Assembly: GCA_963749495.1 (NCBI GenBank)
Contig: CAVVMW010000014.1
Span: 448,001 to 512,000 of the forward strand
Length of the DNA: 64,000 bases
Direction of reading: 5' to 3'
Origin: an uncultured bacterium
GTDB taxonomy: Bacteria; Verrucomicrobiota; Verrucomicrobiia; Limisphaerales; UBA8199
Every line of letters begins with the position of its first letter. Position 1 is the first letter of the stretch. Shown here piece after piece: positions 18,001-30,000 of the stretch. Position numbers: made by a program.

Positions 18001-21000
18001 AAAAAGAGCAACACGGCCGCCACCAGGATGCCGCCGATCATCAGCGACTCGCCCACATTCCGAATCGAGGCCTCGATGAAGTTCGCCTGCCGAAACAGCC
18101 GCGGATGCACAGTGATTCTCTCGGAAACGAAAGCCGGCGCCATCTCCCCCAGCGCGCCCTCCACCGCCCGCGTCACCTCGATCGTATTCGCGCCATATTG
18201 GCTGTACACCTCGAGCACCACGCCGGGCTCGCCCAGGATCAACGCATCACCAAATTTCGGCTCCGGCCCCTCGGCGACCTTTGCCACGTCCTTCAAACGC
18301 ACGCTCGCGCCGTCATGGTGGGCCAGCACCACTTGGCCGAGTTGTTCCGCCGTGAGGGATTGTCCCTCCGTCCGCAGAATGATTCGCTGGTTGGCGTTGT
18401 CCATGAACCCCGCCCCGCGCACGGCGGTGGACTGCCGCGCCGCCGCCAGCACGTCTTCTAAAGCAAGGCCATGCTCCATCAGCAGGTTCGGGTTTGCTTG
18501 GACCTGAAGCTGCCGCACCTCGCCGCCGAAGACCTCCACTTTGGCGACCCCCGGCACTGCCAAAAGTCGCGGTCGCACCGTCCAATCCGCGAAGGCGCGC
18601 AGTTCCATCGCTGTGCGGTTGGTCGAAGTCAGTCCAAGGTTCAGCACCTTGCTCGTCGAAGAAATCAGCGGCCCCATTTTCGGGGCCTTAACGCGTTGCG
18701 GCAGTGAGCCCGCCACTTGGGTCAAACGCTCACTCACCATCTGGCGGACGCGGTAAATATCGGCGCGGTCCCTGAACACGGCCGTGATGGCCGAGAGCCC
18801 TTGAATTGATTCGGAACGAATCGCCACCAGGTTGGGCGCGCCGTTGATGCTGTGCTCGATCGGGCGCGTCACCAGCGCTTCCACTTCCTCGGGCGATAAT
18901 CCCGGCGCTTCGGTTTGGATGACCACTTGCGGCGGCGCGAACTCGGGAAAACGTCCAGTTTGGTGCGCTGTGCCACGTAAAGGCCATAAGCGAGGGCGGC
19001 ACACGCCAGCACAATGACCACGCCGCGATACCGCAATGAGAATTGAACGATCCGCCGGAGCATCGGGGTTAATCAAACATCTTGATCTGATATTTTTGCT
19101 CCTCGGAAAGGAGAACCTGCGCGCCCTGGACGACCACCGGCTGGTTCGCACTTACCCCTCTGCTCACGAACCACCCGTCCTCCAGGCGATGGTCGAGCGC
19201 TATTTCCCGGCGTGTGAAAGTGCCCTCCCCGGTTTGCAGATAGATCCAACCGCGGCCGGCGTGCCGCACCACGGCAGAGTCGGGAACGATGCACCCGCTC
19301 AACGGCCCACTCTTGAGTTGGAGGTAGCCGCTCGCCGCCCTTCCCGGAGAGAGTCGCTGTGAATTCGTTTTGACGAGAAACAAAAACCCCTGACCTTGCA
19401 TCTGTGGGTCAACATTTGGCGCCGGCCCCAGCCATTGCGCCGAAATGGAAGGGCTTTCAGCGGATGCCAGGACGATTCGCGCGCCGGCGGGGTTGCTTTC
19501 AGCATTTGGCCCGCTGGCAGGTCAATCCGCACCAGCGCGCTCTCCAGCGAAGCCAGCGACCGCACAAAAACCGCGAGGTCCGGCTGCTCCGCAATCGCGG
19601 TCCCCCACGCCGACACCAGTCGGAGATGCACGGATTCCACGGCAATGTGATCGCGTTGCGCAGTCGCTTCCACCGCTTGCAGCGCCCGGTCGGAAGCATT
19701 CGCCTGCTCATTGAGCCGCTTCACTCGCTCGAATTCCTTCTCTGACGCCGCCGCGGCAGCCTCAGCGGAAGCCAGTTCGGCCACCAGTGCAACGAGCGGC
19801 GAGGGATCCATCACACGCGCAAATCCTCTCACCTCCGGGCTTAGCATGGCAGGTCTGAGGGGTTCGGCTTGCAGCGCGATTTTTGCCTGAGCTTCTCGCT
19901 CCAACGTCAGGATGATTTCGCCGTTCGCCCCAGACGTGACGCGCGATTTCGCAACGACGGGCCTCTCGCGTTCCGCTTCGGCCTGCCGTTCCGCGCTCAT
20001 TTTGAGAAAGGCGAAGACTAAAGCGCCCATGGCGCCTATTGCCACAAGCAGAACCAGGGCGGTCTTGAGGCTGTTTTTCATGGTTCGGTCGAGGCCATCC
20101 TTCCGCTTTCAGCTCCAGATGTCCAGCCAAAGGGGACCCCAGGAACCCAGCGGGTTTGGATCGAGCAGGCGCAGTTCAGCTTTCAATATGCCTTAGGCGG
20201 TGGAAATAAATAGAGGTGGCAAGATGCCGCCGGGATTTTGGCGCCCAGCGAGGCGTGAACGAGGCGCATATCCAGTGATCTGCAACGAGTGAACAACGAA
20301 GCTGGGCGGCAAAAGAACAAGGCAGGTTGCTACCTTTATTTATTTCCACCGCCTTAATCGGGAAGCCGGTTCGCGCATCGGTGGGCGGACTGGCAACACC
20401 AGCGGCGCCCTGCGCACGGGCGCGCGCACGCCGCGCCCCAGCCAAGCGCAAGCGCGCGCGATCAGGACAACTTCGCCCCGGCAAGCGTCTTGGACCCCCG
20501 CTCCGCCGGCAAGCCCGCCACCCGCAAGAGCGCGCCCGCCGCCTCCAAGTCCCTAATGGCCTCCCGCAGCCGCGGTTCATCCGACTTTGTCCGCGCCAGC
20601 GTTTGCTCCAGCGCCGCCAGTTGGTCCCGCGCCTGTTGTTCCGCCTGCCGGCTCAATTCCGCGATGCCCGTTGCCACCCGCTCACCCCAGTCCGCCGCCA
20701 GCCGCGACAGGTTTTTCTCCACTTCCCACCGTGCCTTACGCGTCAGCACACGCCCAAGCGGCCTGCGAAACACCCTCAACGGCACGACCCAACCAATCGC
20801 GCTGAACGCCACGTCGAAAGCATAAGCCACGTCCACCGGCGGTGCGGCTGGCTGCCGCACCTCCAGGGCGAACTCGCGCGGCGTCAGCGGCAAACCAAGC
20901 GCGTCCTTCACCTGCGCCGCCAGCCGGTCATCAAACGCGCGCAACGCTCGCTTGAGGTGCTCCCGAACCAGGCTCAACGGCTCGCAAAACATCCCTTGCT

Positions 21001-27000: not shown

Positions 27001-30000
27001 TTGCGCCGCGCCGCGAATGGAAGAGATATGAGAATGTGACCCGACGTTTCCGCTGGCCTCTTGCTCAGGACTTGTTTCGGCGTTGCCATAACTCACTACC
27101 GTTGCGAACAATATCGTTTCGGTAGGAGTCGTCAGCCCAAGGGCGGTTTGCCCCGAACCCGTTCGGGGGCAGGCAAACTCCATTGCCTTTGACACACTAT
27201 CACCCGTTAGCGGCGGACAGGAACTACCTCCGGCTCCCGAACAATGCGCCTCCGTATTGCGCCTTCTTGCCCAGCTCCCGCTCGATGGCCAGCAGCCGGT
27301 TGTATTTGGCGATGCGTTCGGACCGGCACGCCGACCCTGTCTTGATCTGCCCCGCGCCCGTCCCCACCGCAAGGTCCGCGATAAACGCGTCTTCGGTCTC
27401 GCCCGACCGATGCGAAATCACAGCGCCGTAACCGGCCTTCTGCGCCATCGATACTGTCTCCAGTGTCTCGGACACGGTGCCGATCTGATTCAGTTTGATC
27501 AGGATTGCGTTGGCGATTCCATCGCGGATGCCCTCCGCGAAGATTTTCGGGTTGGTCACGAAGTTGTCATCGCCCACGAGTTGCATCTTCCTGCCCAGCG
27601 CCTTCGTGAGCGCCTTCCACCCCTCGCGGTCCTCTTCGCCCATCCCGTCCTCCAGCGAGACGATGGGATATTTCCTCGCCCACTCGGCCCACAACGCCAC
27701 CAGCTCCGCAGGCGTCTTGCGCGACCCGTCCGATTTTTTCATCACGTAAGCGCCCTCGTCCCAAAACTCGCTGGCTGCCGGGTCCAGGGCGATGGCAATT
27801 TGTTTGCCCGCCTGGTAACCCGCCGTTCCGATAGCCTCCAGAATCACGTCCACCGCTTCCGTGTTGGTCTTTAGGTTCGGCGCGAAGCCACCCTCGTCGC
27901 CAACGGCCGTCACCAACCCGCGTTTCTGCAAAAGCTTCTTGAGCGTGTGAAACGTCTCCGTCCCATACCGCAGCGCCTCGGCAAACGTCGGCGCCCCAAT
28001 CGGGAAGAGCATGAATTCCTGGAAATCCACATTGTTGGTCGCATGCGCCCCGCCGTTCAGGACGTTCATCATCGGCGCAGGCAGCACATAGAGCGCGTTC
28101 TCTTCCCCGCCGAAAAGCCTCCGAATGTGCGTGTAGAGGGGCGAAGCCGACTCCGTAGCCGCCGCCCGGCACGCCGCCATCGAAACGCCCAGAATGGCAT
28201 TCGCTCCCAGCTTCGCTTTGGTCTCCGTCCCGTCCAGCTCGCACATCATTCTGTCAATCTCCTTTTGCTCCTGCGGCGATTTCCCCTGCAGCCTCGGCGC
28301 AATCACCGTGTTGACGTTCGCCACCGCTTTCAACACACCCTTGCCGCCATACCGCTTCGGCTCCTGGTCCCGCAACTCCACGGCTTCCCGGATGCCCGTG
28401 GAGGCGCCCGATGGGACGCTCGCCGACGCTGTAATGCCGTTCGACAAAACGACCGTTACCGAAACGGTCGGATTGCCCCGCGAGTCGAGAATTTCCAATG
28501 CGCTGATGTTTTCTATGGTGTTCATATCGAGTCCTGTTCTGTGGTTATTCAATTTCACCGGGACTGGTTTGGTCCCCGGGAAGTTCATCGGGCTGTTTGA
28601 CGATGAGCACGCTGCAATGGGCGTGGTCACTAATCCGGTCCGCCGTGTCGCCGAGCAGGCGTCCCCAAAGCTCCGAGTGATCGCTGTGGCCGACGACGAT
28701 GAGGTCGTAGCCGGCGCTGTTGGCGAAGGTCACCATTACCTTGGCGGCATGGCCGGCGCGGCTCTCGCAGCCGATGGCGATGCCAAAGCGTTGGGCCACC
28801 TTCTCGACTTCGTGCTTGCGCTCCTGGAAGTAATCGCGCGCGGCATCGGCTTCGCCTTCCGCTTCCCCGGGCAAGTCCGCATGGCGCGGCAGTGGCTGCC
28901 GCACCCAGAGCGCCGTCAATTGCCCGCCGCCCTCACGGGCCAGTGCCGCCGCGCGTTCCAGCGCCGCCCGCCCGCCTTTCGATCCGTCGTAACCGACCAG
29001 GATTTTCCGGAACATAATCGCTTCACTTTCCCAGGGGCTGAGGTTGGACTTTCACCCTGCCGTTGAGCTTCCGCTGATAAAGCCGGCCCCAGGCCTGCAT
29101 CGTCCGCCGGGACGGCTCGAAGAACTTCGGCGCGATGACGGTGGGCACAAACGCGCTCAGAATGACGACCGTGACGAGGATGGAATACTGCTTCTGGTCA
29201 ATGATCCTGTTTTGCAGCCCGAACAGGGCAGAGATTGTGCCGAAGGTCAGGCCTGTGGACATGAGCAGCGTCGTGTAATTGGCCTCTCGCGGCCGCATGA
29301 AGTATTTCCGGCACAACGGCAGCACGCCCACGAGCTTGGTGGCCATCTTGAGCGCCAGGAGCGCCAGGATAACGCCCGAGGCCGCCGCCAGCGCGCGGAG
29401 CGACACGAACGAACCGGCGCGGATGAAGTAAAAAGGGGTGAAGACCGCGAAGGCGATGCTGCGCATCCGGTGCACCAGTGTCTTGTCGCGCAGGAACACA
29501 CCGGCCACAACCAGGCCGAGGAGGTAGGCGGGGAGCACCGCCTCGCTCTTGGCCGTCAAGGCCAGCCCGCCCAGGAAGAAGAGCACGAGGAAAATGAACT
29601 TAATCTCCGGCTCGCTCGCCCGGGTGGCCCCCAAGCGCACGACGATGTACTGGGTCCACCTGGGCATAAACCACAGCGTCACGCAGGTAACGATGACGAA
29701 CACCAGCAGCCAGACGTTGAAATTGGCGAAAATGAGGCCCAGTGCCAGCACTGTGCCAAGGTCGTTGATGAAACACGCCGCCAGAATCATCTTGCCCAGG
29801 GCCGTCTCGCCTTGCCGCGTCTCAATCATCACGGCATAGACCACGGCGACGGAAGTCGTCGAGAGGGCTATGCCGGCGATTTGGGCCTGGTGAAGGGGCC
29901 AGCCGAGGGCAAACCGCGCGAAGGCCCAGACTCCCGCGAAGGGCAGGAGAAATGCCGCAGTGCCGATGGCCATGCTCGCGCGCAGGTTGGCCCGGAGGGA

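Follow-up and report, generated by a model that had tools for sequence, protein, structure and literature searches.

The fluoride riboswitch class senses fluoride together with Mg2+, and not AlFx. Its regulons (crcB motif, RF01734) include, in the available parts of a 2024 fluoride review (PMC11139923) and in Weinberg 2010 (PMC2864571), CrcB/Fluc, CLC-F, Na+/H+ antiporters, enolase and pyrophosphatase, and further HAD phosphatases, formate hydrogen lyase and MutS-like genes. The locus described here has the same aptamer class, read as an ON switch, and its island also holds CrcB, DUF190, NhaP, Usp, enolase, MutS-like and hydrogenlyase-like genes. In contrast, its AAA+ ATPase, two dynamins and metallophosphoesterase-dUTPase fusion (MPE-dUTPase) are not among the classes named in the available parts of these sources; neither the seen portion of the review nor Weinberg 2010, text and eight supplements, holds a riboswitch-dynamin link. 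Our literature searches likewise turned up no report, in line with the novelty claimed in a first-pass annotation, and a passing listing may exist in Baker 2012. Control here, as the leaders imply, is translational and is often intercistronic, which also sets it apart from the known regulons.

Among bacterial dynamin-like proteins, IniA (of the mycobacterial iniBAC) and Bacillus subtilis DynA are stress-linked, with envelope-stress induction and roles in membrane repair. There a protein regulator answers cell-wall drugs, pores or phage, whereas an ion sensed by RNA would be the inducer here. IniA (PDB 6j72) is the top structural match of a model of an orthologue of our first dynamin, Dyn1 (E 2.8e-16, 579 columns), and the second-best PDB sequence match of the dynamins. 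The closest sequence relatives among solved structures are DLP1 and DLP2 of Campylobacter jejuni (PDB 5owv/5oxf), likewise two unlike dynamins in one cluster: Dyn1 resembles DLP1 chain A (best match 5owv_A) and the second dynamin, Dyn2, DLP2 chain C (5owv_C, in a search made with its paralogue), over alignments limited to the GTPase regions (E 1e-13 to 6e-15). The present locus differs in its conserved AAA+ ATPase and phosphoesterase partners, and we know of no riboswitch or fluoride link for the Campylobacter pair.

A fluoride riboswitch between enolase and an ATPase

The window, a stretch of 64,000 nucleotides from an uncultured member of the Verrucomicrobiota, carries this locus on its minus strand. 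Five RF01734 matches exist in the genome, at the contig positions first reported. The one of interest, at contig 475116-475196(-) and window 27116-27196(-), was found again at 51.1 bits (gathering score 34) over the full model, 1-64, and reaches 84.1 bits with our own model R1. It begins 27 nt past the stop codon of enolase and is followed after 26 nt, not the 120 nt first given, by the ATG (27089) of a small AAA+ ATPase.

Upstream, another fluoride riboswitch (30269..30358, -; RF01734, 44.8 bits) heads a block of NhaP-type Na+/H+ antiporter (29023..30243, -; orthologue matching Pfam Na_H_Exchanger), universal stress protein (28545..29015, -; orthologue matching Pfam Usp, 1.4e-28) and enolase (27224..28630 as listed, -; orthologue matching Enolase_N and Enolase_C, and tblastn), the conserved enolase protein beginning near 28525. 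The likely start of NhaP is an ATG about 25 nt past the aptamer, in a leader that ends in this ATG, and the listed ORF extends to 30291. The genes first assigned to the other switches need correction for the third riboswitch of the window (32458-32547), downstream of which lies only a duplicated 5' fragment of NhaP.

A consensus site scan, with site counts at chance level, gave a promoter-like site at the first riboswitch (30384-30356, -), no promoter-like or terminator-like site between enolase and switch 27116-27196, and a terminator-like hairpin after Dyn2 (20319..20336, -) as a possible operon end. With 27 nt and no such site separating it from enolase, the switch is most likely an internal, intercistronic gate in a transcript of about 10 kb that would read riboswitch, NhaP, Usp, enolase, riboswitch, AAA+ ATPase, Dyn1, ORF295, MPE-dUTPase, Dyn2. 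Beside the aptamer, conserved alternative helix, conserved gene order and protein families that computation establishes, we infer that the block is co-transcribed and that fluoride induces it in vivo.

The layout reported for a paralogous operon on the same contig (636-654 kb) agrees with that of the window, in the order riboswitch, NhaP, Usp, enolase, riboswitch, ATPase, metallophosphoesterase fragment and intact 563-aa dynamin. The two ATPases (g05837/g06010) are indeed paralogues, at 67% identity and not 70%; the Dyn2 copies (g05832/g06013), given as 87% identical, share 87-89% of protein and 91% of DNA positions, with one indel.

In the expression platform (27091..27129, -) the 3' tail of the aptamer (27129-27120) pairs with an 11-nt anti-tail, CGGUAGUGAGU (27101-27091), that stops 1 nt short of the ATPase ATG, and this helix is present in the minimum-free-energy fold of the leader. 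Across 52 distinct leader sequences, 98.7% of cells of the off-state helix are paired (with slid partners as control, the whole counted structure was paired in only 25-40% of cells), the ATG lying 2-3 nt past the helix. Changes comprise ten wobble-compatible single ones and one double compensatory one, a thin covariation explained by the near invariance of both strands. Shuffled controls were weakly exceeded, 11/500 reaching the observed percentage of paired cells and 18/500 the covariation score, and the leader has a modest fold z-score, -1.83. Conservation of the helix in 52 distinct sequences implies that the switch acts on translation and is of the ON type. As a Shine-Dalgarno site the sequence just upstream of the ATG is poor (GAG only, 2-nt spacing), and the block would work by occluding the start site. 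CrcB and NhaP in the ATPase loci follow a related platform, and most leaders of phosphoesterase-linked riboswitches end in the platform seen at the ATPase. In the proposed mechanism, fluoride would bind the aptamer (27196-27116) and its 3' tail, ACUCCUACC, would be captured in the aptamer pseudoknot, turning translation ON; without fluoride the tail would pair with the anti-tail and initiation at the AAA+ ATPase would be blocked.

Proteins encoded behind the switch

The ATPase (26349..27089, -) has 246 aa. The 215 aa and start at 26996 of the earlier gene call had to be revised, because that start leaves out the invariant residues R28 and E31 and because the paralogue and orthologues also begin at the position of ATG 27089. 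Nor is it an NTPase without a named family: an AF2 model (pLDDT 82) identifies it in Foldseek as an AAA+ ATPase by fold, with MuB, TnsC, ORC1 and RFC as matches (TM 0.59-0.72), and it shares a P-loop core and helical lid with the MuB, TnsC, ORC-Cdc6 and RFC proteins. Its score against Pfam AAA_16, 28.9 bits, is under the cut-off of 32.6. Walker A (G49-S56) and a VVFDG motif are invariant, the latter without the glutamate of the usual AAA+ Walker B. In contrast to these relatives, to which it is only 13-19% identical, it stands without a DNA-binding or transposition context and has dynamins as partner genes.

The start codon of Dyn1, a DLP1-type dynamin-like GTPase (24310..26352, -; both pieces matching Pfam Dynamin_N), overlaps the stop codon of the ATPase, and the DLP2-type Dyn2 (20462..22161, -; Dynamin_N, 72.2 bits) is the last gene of the set. 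Their G1-G4 motifs are invariant, and their best PDB relatives are Campylobacter DLP1/DLP2, IniA and BDLP. In the fold search with the Dyn1 orthologue model, IniA and BDLP align over 570-700 columns (E 3e-16 to 3e-14); the TM-scores to solved dynamins, 0.25-0.33, are low, as expected of hinged multi-domain proteins, and are no proof of the domain arrangement. Neither Dyn1 nor Dyn2 showed a strongly hydrophobic segment, which leaves their membrane binding a prediction.

Both dynamins had been described as split. Their frames do break, at homopolymer runs and each time by a change of a single base; an assembly error probably accounts for at least one break. Dyn1 is spread over three reading frames (broken near 26245-26255 and 25671-25698, as mapped against an intact orthologue from locus L012), and Dyn2 has one frame change near 21043-21073, with a GGGG run at the break. 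A short-read contig (depth 2.8) has one extra G at 25671 and 0 other differences over 254 nt, so that this break is probably erroneous; it is the only one of the three contradicted by an otherwise identical contig. Three real frame changes in two genes would make both window dynamins pseudogenes of a decaying operon, and the paralogous locus does lack Dyn1 and most of the phosphoesterase. We nevertheless hold decay to be improbable: the homopolymer context of all three breaks, the extra G, the splitting of another long window gene, an RND pump (15968-19151), and a genome completeness of only 88% in 31 contigs together fit assembly indel errors, while for most of their length the pieces still share 83-89% identity with intact relatives (61% in the C-terminal part of Dyn1) and no stop codons lie inside the dynamin frames.

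Between the dynamins lie ORF295 (23296..24183, -), a 295-aa protein of no known family, and the 378-aa MPE-dUTPase (22163..23299, -). ORF295 has no match in Pfam, NCBIfam or PADLOC and is an occasional cluster member, with relatives in only four loci; its start is uncertain because related contigs have an indel at 24167. The MPE-dUTPase joins a metallophosphoesterase (Pfam Metallophos_2, 2.4e-20) to a dimeric-dUTPase-like (MazG-like) domain (dUTPase_2, 1.7e-20); its translation shows DxH, GD, GNHD and GHxH motifs, and 3rqz, YfcE and dimeric dUTPases are its PDB sequence matches. A small 4-TM protein, u137, lies between ATPase and Dyn1 in nine dereplicated loci, a hint at the membrane.

Conservation of the riboswitch-operon pairing

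Searching with the ATPase alone yielded 86 loci in 71 dereplicated groups, 67 of them assessable for a riboswitch. The association proposed from fewer orthologues holds above chance: in 58/67 the riboswitch is directly upstream on the same strand, at no more than 120 nt, in two it is 121-400 nt away, and in three it is further upstream with only same-strand fluoride-regulon genes between. It is absent in four of the 67, two with a contig starting inside the upstream gene and two with a MutS-like gene upstream. Also as claimed, a dynamin follows the ATPase, within 1.5 kb in 49/53 loci, and the phosphoesterase is found within 6 kb in 25/38. Half of the phosphoesterase genes (17/34) have their own riboswitch at most 150 nt upstream. 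The first gene after 115 riboswitches was the AAA+ ATPase in 60 cases, the phosphoesterase in 18, NhaP in 12, CrcB in nine and Dyn2 in two; 51 of these switches lie no more than 150 nt after a same-strand gene, and loci of 12-20 kb contain up to four. A single clade of Verrucomicrobiota, in peat and sediment, is the probable source of most loci, which are therefore not independent.

To test the link independently, we searched a sample of 400 other genomes of the phylum with a Dyn2 profile; the ATPase was found in none of them. Thirteen matched, and the three best have fluoride riboswitches without the ATPase, extending the link to dynamin relatives beyond the ATPase loci. In two of these, 8 and 14 nt separate the aptamer from the start of the dynamin ORF; in the third, enolase and then the dynamin follow a candidate riboswitch that Rfam did not report at gathering score, with a separate gathering-score riboswitch elsewhere in the cluster. 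Around the ten distant matches no riboswitch turned up over about 8 kb or as far as the contig reached.

The position of the switch, 27 nt past enolase, would also suit a switch that serves the enolase operon, or a relic, next to an unrelated system of ATPase and dynamins, for example an anti-phage system of LeoABC/Eleos type, in which dynamin-family GTPases also stand in tandem. This reading is largely refuted and very improbable. In 52 distinct leaders the platform is joined directly to the start codon of the ATPase, the riboswitch-ATPase pair occurs without enolase upstream (e.g. loci L014, L046 and L059), and phosphoesterase and dynamin genes have separate riboswitches. PADLOC matches of Dyn2 to LeoA (1.9e-07) and LeoBC (4e-04) are weak and confined to the P-loop region, no PADLOC model matches the ATPase, Dyn1, phosphoesterase or small ORFs, LeoA ranks 48th in the fold search, and the conserved riboswitch points to abiotic stress. 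Fluoride control of the ATPase/dynamin operon is predicted with high confidence, and the recurrent pairing suggests that fluoride turns on these bacterial dynamins.

Possible roles in fluoride stress

The operon proteins probably serve the response to fluoride stress specifically. Enzymes of phosphoryl transfer are inhibited by fluoride and by metal fluorides (MgF3-, AlF4-), GDP-AlF4- traps the G domain of dynamins, and all core members are NTPases or phosphoesterases. Like the inhibited enzymes that known regulons make in excess, such as enolase, pyrophosphatase and HAD phosphatases (available parts of PMC11139923), the NTPases and phosphoesterases of the operon might accordingly be additional or less sensitive enzymes that serve as replacements or sinks, and would then have no task particular to the membrane. 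We regard this as unlikely: there is nothing to replace, the Dynamin_N genes of the genome being only those linked to riboswitches, plus one weak match at 23.9 bits, and the ATPase occurring in 0/400 other genomes of the phylum; moreover, one-for-one binding of fluoride on protein should not buffer millimolar concentrations.

Still less probable is that the dynamin pair is a regulatory GTPase, or that the MPE-dUTPase clears aberrant nucleotides or fluorophosphate with the GTPases as accessories. A bacterial dynamin homologue is reported to regulate a diguanylate cyclase, E. coli RdcA/RdcB acting on DgcE (available parts of PMC13463826, PMC6510439), the dUTPase_2/MazG-like fold is, by its Pfam names, typical of house-cleaning NTP pyrophosphatases, and the phosphoesterase often has its own switch. 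Against this, no cyclase is conserved across the loci, nor any other partner in signalling, the DLP1/DLP2 pairing and the 4-TM neighbour suggest membranes, and fluorinated nucleotide substrates are speculation.

On balance we favour a fluoride-gated operon block. As its likeliest role, the DLP1/DLP2-type pair would work at the cytoplasmic membrane when cells in acidic habitats meet fluoride/HF stress, perhaps in repair, fusion or fission in the manner of DynA, IniA and the Campylobacter pair, with the AAA+ ATPase and phosphoesterase as accessory factors. The membrane remodelling or repair originally suggested as the module's function is plausible yet tentative, drawn by analogy with other bacterial dynamins, on which a part for Al- or Be-fluoride trapping might also be supposed. 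The riboswitch-operon pairing is found again in dozens of related bacteria from soil and peat. If our reading is true, these dynamins would have as their inducer a defined ion, sensed directly by RNA.

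The predicted riboswitch-headed operon in the window

The genome (11.4 Mb in 31 contigs, 88% complete) carries five fluoride riboswitches, all recovered where the first-pass annotation had placed them. An Rfam scan of the whole window gave five matches at gathering score, namely three fluoride riboswitches on the minus strand and two group II intron domains. Along the minus strand, a riboswitch (30358–30269, 44.8 bits) is followed by genes for an NhaP antiporter, a Usp protein and an enolase ending at 27224, and then by a second riboswitch (27196–27116). Behind the latter lie a small P-loop protein, hereafter the AAA+ ATPase (26349–27089), the DLP1-type dynamin-like GTPase Dyn1 (26352–24310, read in three frames), a 295-aa ORF without a family (ORF295, 24183–23296), a metallophosphoesterase fused to a dimeric-dUTPase-like domain (MPE, 23299–22163) and the DLP2-type dynamin-like GTPase Dyn2 (22161–20462, read in two frames). 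Related organisms, in contigs from two sequencing runs, have one base fewer at 24167, a short way before the TTG at which ORF295 is taken to start, so this ORF may in truth begin farther upstream and closer to the end of Dyn1. The same genome holds a diverged copy of the whole block (L001), with a DNA identity of 70% from NhaP through the ATPase and 91% over Dyn2, from which Dyn1, ORF295 and most of the phosphoesterase have been deleted.

The riboswitch in front of the ATPase scores 51.1 bits against a gathering score of 34 and covers positions 1–64 of the 64 of RF01734 (cmscan). Helices P1 and P3 and the consensus nucleotides are present, and the consensus is matched over its full length, with an extra hairpin of 20 nt separating P1 from P3. 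The aptamer loop AUGGAGUU is complementary to the 3' strand or tail, GACUCCUAC, corresponding to the GGAGU loop and ACUCC 3' tail expected for RF01734. From the solved structure, we take this pairing of the P1 loop (GGAGU) with the 3' tail to be the pseudoknot of the aptamer, with a part in fluoride binding. The first-pass annotation had started the ATPase at 26996, giving a protein of 215 aa that began 120 nt after the aptamer. The actual ATG is at 27089, which yields 246 aa and is the start used in the paralogue and the orthologues; R28 and E31, which lie upstream of the start called earlier, never vary among 24 aligned family members. This places the end of the aptamer 26 nt from the start codon, a spacing like that already noted at the paralogue.

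Compared with intact relatives, Dyn1 contains two frame changes (near 26245–26255 and 25671–25698) and Dyn2 one (near 21043–21073). All three breaks fall at short homopolymer runs. A public contig of 254 nt, otherwise identical to the window, has an extra G after 25671, which at a depth of only 2.8 is suggestive of an assembly error and not proof of one. More distant contigs have indels at 21069, 26255 and 24167 (the last just upstream of ORF295), and a frame change also interrupts the gene of the RND pump farther along the strand. Taken together, these observations make indel errors of the assembly the probable cause of the breaks, and real decay of the genes improbable. The sequences were left unmended, and intact orthologues were used for searches and folds. 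The sequencing runs that share words with the window, at small shares (0.17 at most), are freshwater-sediment and peat metagenomes and include no RNA run.

Several neighbours of the operon deserve mention. After Dyn2, on the same strand, comes a tripartite RND efflux system (14441–20081, minus strand) made up of a membrane-fusion protein (19299–20081), the RND pump (15968–19151, with its frame change) and an outer-membrane factor (14441–15850). At two other ATPase loci (L004, 17081–18651, and L059, 653–6560), a fluoride riboswitch stands directly before the outer-membrane factor of an RND system, and this efflux system would be a further, unlisted member of the fluoride regulon. Upstream, there is a second copy of a riboswitch together with the initial ~60 codons of NhaP (32458–32547 and 32055–32480, versus 30269–30358 and the real gene), and the two copies flank about 2 kb with a ParD-type antitoxin (31437–31718, plus strand) and a PIN-domain toxin (31715–32101, plus strand). 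The stretch 30359–32547 seems to have been inserted into the 5' end of NhaP, duplicating the target, in which case the third riboswitch (32458–32547, minus strand, 43.7 bits) would control a gene fragment only. Further genes on the plus strand encode a DUF433 protein typical of small toxin-antitoxin pairs (32558–32884) and a protein with a retroviral-type aspartyl protease domain (32991–33872). Matches to group II intron D1-D4 domains at 42426–42573 (plus strand, 63.2 bits) and 61955–62099 (minus strand, 66.4 bits) indicate at least two intron copies in the window.

Conservation of the linkage and of the expression platform

A search of 400 other genomes sampled from the phylum found no copy of the ATPase. 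When one genome per species was scanned with a sequence pattern, five ATPase loci emerged, each with a fluoride riboswitch at gathering score just upstream, and a large protein collection contained 456 relatives (E up to 1e-5). A metagenome scan based on the alignment yielded 79 loci, and 218 relatives were confirmed. A local covariance model built from 15 riboswitches of these loci made 146 matches in 86 sources, all on the strand of the ATPase gene (nhmmer, 138). Genes were annotated by tblastn with one reference per family; greedy ORF calling was discarded because some of its clusters (3, 12, u129, u144, u224 and u98) were antisense or spurious, lying across riboswitches or real genes, and these were kept out of the counts. 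Loci with ATPase genes at 97% DNA identity were merged, which left 71 groups out of 86 loci, with the window and its paralogue counted in and their duplicates (L002 and L003) left out. Four groups hold too little upstream DNA, leaving 67 that could be assessed for a riboswitch.

A riboswitch lies at most 120 nt upstream of the ATPase in 58 of these 67 groups and at 121–400 nt, with nothing between, in two more. In three it is found farther upstream, with only same-strand genes of the regulon in between (enolase; NhaP-Usp-enolase; NhaP-Usp). No riboswitch was seen in the last four, two of which (L034, L071) begin inside the upstream gene while the other two (L070, L077) have a MutS-like gene there. 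A dynamin gene starts within 1.5 kb downstream of the ATPase in 49 of 53 assessable groups, and a phosphoesterase within 6 kb in 25 of 38. The conserved association of riboswitch, ATPase and dynamin proposed in the first-pass annotation is upheld.

The first gene after the riboswitch (n = 115) is the AAA+ ATPase in 60 cases, MPE in 18, NhaP in 12, CrcB in nine, DUF190 in three, and enolase and Dyn2 in two each, with another gene or none in nine. These counts, together with those of the neighbours, resolve at the family level into two predicted riboswitch-headed blocks. One consists of the riboswitch, the AAA+ ATPase, optionally a small 4-TM or a 157-aa helical protein, and then Dyn1 or Dyn2; the other of the riboswitch, the MPE-dUTPase fusion, Dyn2 and an FGE-like protein. 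The window has the two blocks fused, with the second switch absent.

Other genes recur in these loci. The gene of the FGE-like protein, which is cytosolic and FGE/SUMF1-like (EgtB-like), often closes the riboswitch-MPE-Dyn2 block (e.g. L005, 11846–12796, L040, L046, L055 and L082) and does not occur in the window. In L005 (13012–13605 plus ~1.9 kb), L026, L041, L042 and L074 it is followed by a third dynamin-like gene, larger than the others; only the GTPase domain of this third dynamin matches Dyn1 or Dyn2, and the few relatives of ORF295 are encoded just after it. Pairs of MutS domain V proteins are found behind fluoride riboswitches in L046 (3165–6500), L048 (4550–8100) and, upstream of the ATPase, L070 and L077, with ~0.9–1 kb of unannotated sequence separating switch and gene. 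In two loci such pairs directly precede the AAA+ ATPase, in keeping with the long-known link between the crcB motif and mutS.

The linkage can also be approached from the dynamins, without the ATPase. A Dyn2 profile run on the same 400-genome sample, with flanks of up to 8–10 kb where contigs allowed, had hits in 13 further genomes (E up to 1e-20), of which the three best all carry fluoride riboswitches. The best (2e-111) has the order candidate riboswitch, enolase, dynamin, FGE-like gene, second dynamin, riboswitch and NhaP, its first switch being found by the local model only (21.6 bits). In the other two, the aptamer ends 8 nt before a dynamin ORF of 649 aa (8e-47) and 14 nt before one of 621 aa that is followed by NhaP (1e-43). 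The flanking DNA searched around the ten weaker matches (E 1e-21 to 1e-27), which belong to other subfamilies, held no riboswitch. An Acido-Lenti-1 sRNA match (L108, 16229–16274, 49.9 bits) near a distant dynamin, in another genome of the phylum, is unrelated to the fluoride linkage.

The leaders share an apparent expression platform. In the minimum-free-energy fold of the window leader (z-score modest, -1.83), the tail GACUCCUACCG pairs with CGGUAGUGAGU, an anti-tail that ends 1 nt before the AUG of the ATPase. Over 52 distinct leaders (L006, L045 and L069, with variant platforms outside the search pattern, are omitted), this 10-bp helix is paired in 98.7% of cells, compared with 25–40% for the whole counted structure in a slid-partner control. 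Covariation is thin and exceeds the shuffle control weakly, because both strands are nearly invariant; ten one-sided changes still pair via wobble, and a compensatory change of both partners occurs in one sequence (L075). Since the tail serves both the pseudoknot and the anti-tail helix, the two pairings are mutually exclusive. The window leader has no U-tract terminator. Fluoride binding would commit the tail to the pseudoknot and free the start region, making this a translational ON switch. Just ahead of the AUG the sequence matches the Shine-Dalgarno consensus poorly, and we therefore infer that the OFF state works by occlusion of the ATPase start site instead of classic Shine-Dalgarno masking.

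In the 27 nt between enolase and aptamer, a consensus scan revealed no promoter-like or terminator-like site (site counts were at chance level), so the switch is probably internal to a long transcript. Among all dereplicated loci, 51 of the 115 riboswitches begin no more than 150 nt after a gene on the same strand, and loci of at least 12 kb hold from one to four switches. Half of the MPE genes (17/34) are preceded by a riboswitch of their own, and their leaders mostly end in the same platform as those of the ATPase; a related platform also precedes CrcB and NhaP in these loci.

The encoded proteins

The Dynamin_N profile (Pfam cut-off 27) reaches 72.2 bits in Dyn2, and 41.8 and 31.1 bits in the two pieces of Dyn1; the G1–G4 motifs are invariant in alignments of both (GxxxxGKS, T, DTPG and (T/S)KAD). 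By sequence, the nearest solved structures are Campylobacter DLP1 for Dyn1 and DLP2 for Dyn2, followed by IniA, Nostoc BDLP and the mitofusins. Because the window copy of Dyn1 has frame changes, the intact orthologue of L012 was modelled (pLDDT 76.9). Outside residues 190–385 the model is all-helical, with helices flanking the GTPase domain on both sides, and Foldseek aligned it with IniA, BDLP and Cj-DLP1/2 over 570–700 columns (E 3e-16 to 6e-11), at TM values that are low (0.25–0.33), as expected of hinged proteins. A BDLP-type neck and trunk of long helices on either side of the GTPase domain is thus predicted here as well. No segment of the dynamins reaches TM-like hydropathy; residues 546–585 of the model include conserved hydrophobic stretches in a loop between trunk helices. 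Membrane binding by these dynamins would follow from their family membership.

The ATPase had been described as an NTPase of no named family, a description that its predicted fold revises to AAA+ ATPase. The AlphaFold model built on the alignment (pLDDT 82, pTM 0.76) matches AAA+ proteins of the MuB, TnsC, ORC1/Cdc6, RuvBL and RFC kinds, with best TM values of 0.59–0.72. Walker A (GxxGVGKS) is invariant, and Walker B (VVFDG) has the aspartate and lacks the glutamate. The window protein falls below the cut-off of Pfam AAA_16 (28.9 versus 32.6 bits), the L073 orthologue above it (46.4). Walker A, Walker B and the modelled core-plus-lid fold together argue for an AAA+ ATPase. The ESM Atlas gave only generic AAA_16 clusters for it, with Verrucomicrobiota, Acidobacteriota and Planctomycetota as commonest taxa (leads only). 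The predicted complex of ATPase and Dyn1 (L012 pair) scored 0.00, a value that carries no weight either way.

Metallophos_2 matches MPE at 73.5 bits (Pfam cut-off 27), and its translation contains the DVH, GD, GNHD and GHTH motifs, by which it qualifies as a putative calcineurin-like metallophosphoesterase. It resembles the YfcE-type diesterases, and its C-terminal domain the dimeric dUTPases.

Possible role in fluoride stress

Control by fluoride, as predicted from the conserved leaders, is the strong part of the finding. IniA and DynA have stress-linked roles. Because of these, the paired DLP1/DLP2 architecture and the occasional 4-TM partner, we favour action of the module on membranes, albeit at somewhat less than an even chance; membrane repair is, by analogy, a reasonable hypothesis and not a result. 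In a fuller and slightly more tentative reading, the dynamins may be core fluoride-stress effectors of acid-soil and peat bacteria. Cells under fluoride or HF stress would have to fuse, divide or repair membranes. A dedicated DLP1/DLP2 pair would do this with the help of the AAA+ ATPase and the phosphoesterase, and serial translational riboswitches within one long operon would switch the module on, ion-by-ion. Three of the genome loci come from peat and palsa bins. At low pH fluoride enters cells as HF, according to a 2024 review (PMC11139923), so acidic habitats would fit.

Other roles can be envisaged. The operon might compensate for, or act as a decoy of, phosphoryl-transfer enzymes inhibited by fluoride, a proposal weakened by the lack of other dynamins to replace in this genome, where the Dynamin_N profile found the riboswitch-linked genes and one weak hit only. 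Dynamins as stoichiometric fluoride sponges were rejected, by inference, on grounds of quantity. The dynamins as regulatory GTPases, like that reported for E. coli RdcA, or the MPE fusion in nucleotide house-cleaning, are rivals to the membrane reading. The operon could, finally, be an unrelated defence system that happens to lie beside the enolase switch, a reading largely refuted by the conserved leaders and gene order together with the defence-system search. No operon protein matched a PADLOC system or an NCBIfam equivalog, and the defence reading was dropped for that reason. As for Eleos/LeoABC, the LeoA and LeoBC profiles match Dyn2 over short P-loop stretches only (28.6 and 17.6 bits), and neither matches Dyn1 or the other operon proteins.

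The first-pass annotation had considered the linkage new, and as far as could be searched it is unpublished. Judged by title and abstract, we found no paper on a dynamin, GTPase or metallophosphoesterase controlled by a fluoride riboswitch (a passing listing in Baker 2012 is possible), nor on a dynamin under a riboswitch of any kind, and none of the papers on bacterial dynamins that mention fluoride concerns a fluoride response. In its accessible part, the 2024 review lists exporters, Na+/H+ antiporters, pyrophosphatase, HAD phosphatases, enolase and formate hydrogen lyase as fluoride resistance genes, without 'GTPase' or 'dynamin' (PMC11139923). Weinberg 2010 (PMC2864571) names mutS, K+/Cl- transport and formate hydrogen lyase, and neither word occurs in its text and eight supplements. 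The observation is real, conserved and, within the reach of these searches, apparently unpublished.

What we describe is a new effector gene set under a known riboswitch class, in an unusual serial, intercistronic and translational layout. Several translational fluoride switches between the cistrons of one operon, up to four per locus of 12–20 kb, should interest RNA biologists and designers of fluoride-inducible expression tools. Fluoride biology gains a gene set (GTPases, an AAA+ ATPase, a phosphoesterase-dUTPase fusion) that belongs to none of the themes recognized so far, be it exporting fluoride, keeping pH and ions in balance or replacing enzymes that are inhibited. To our knowledge, the role and inducer of most bacterial dynamin-like proteins are still unclear. 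Because a riboswitch names its ligand, these genes carry a built-in statement of their inducer, which makes the question testable. If true, fluoride would be the first defined chemical inducer for bacterial dynamins, and a membrane arm would be added to fluoride toxicity.
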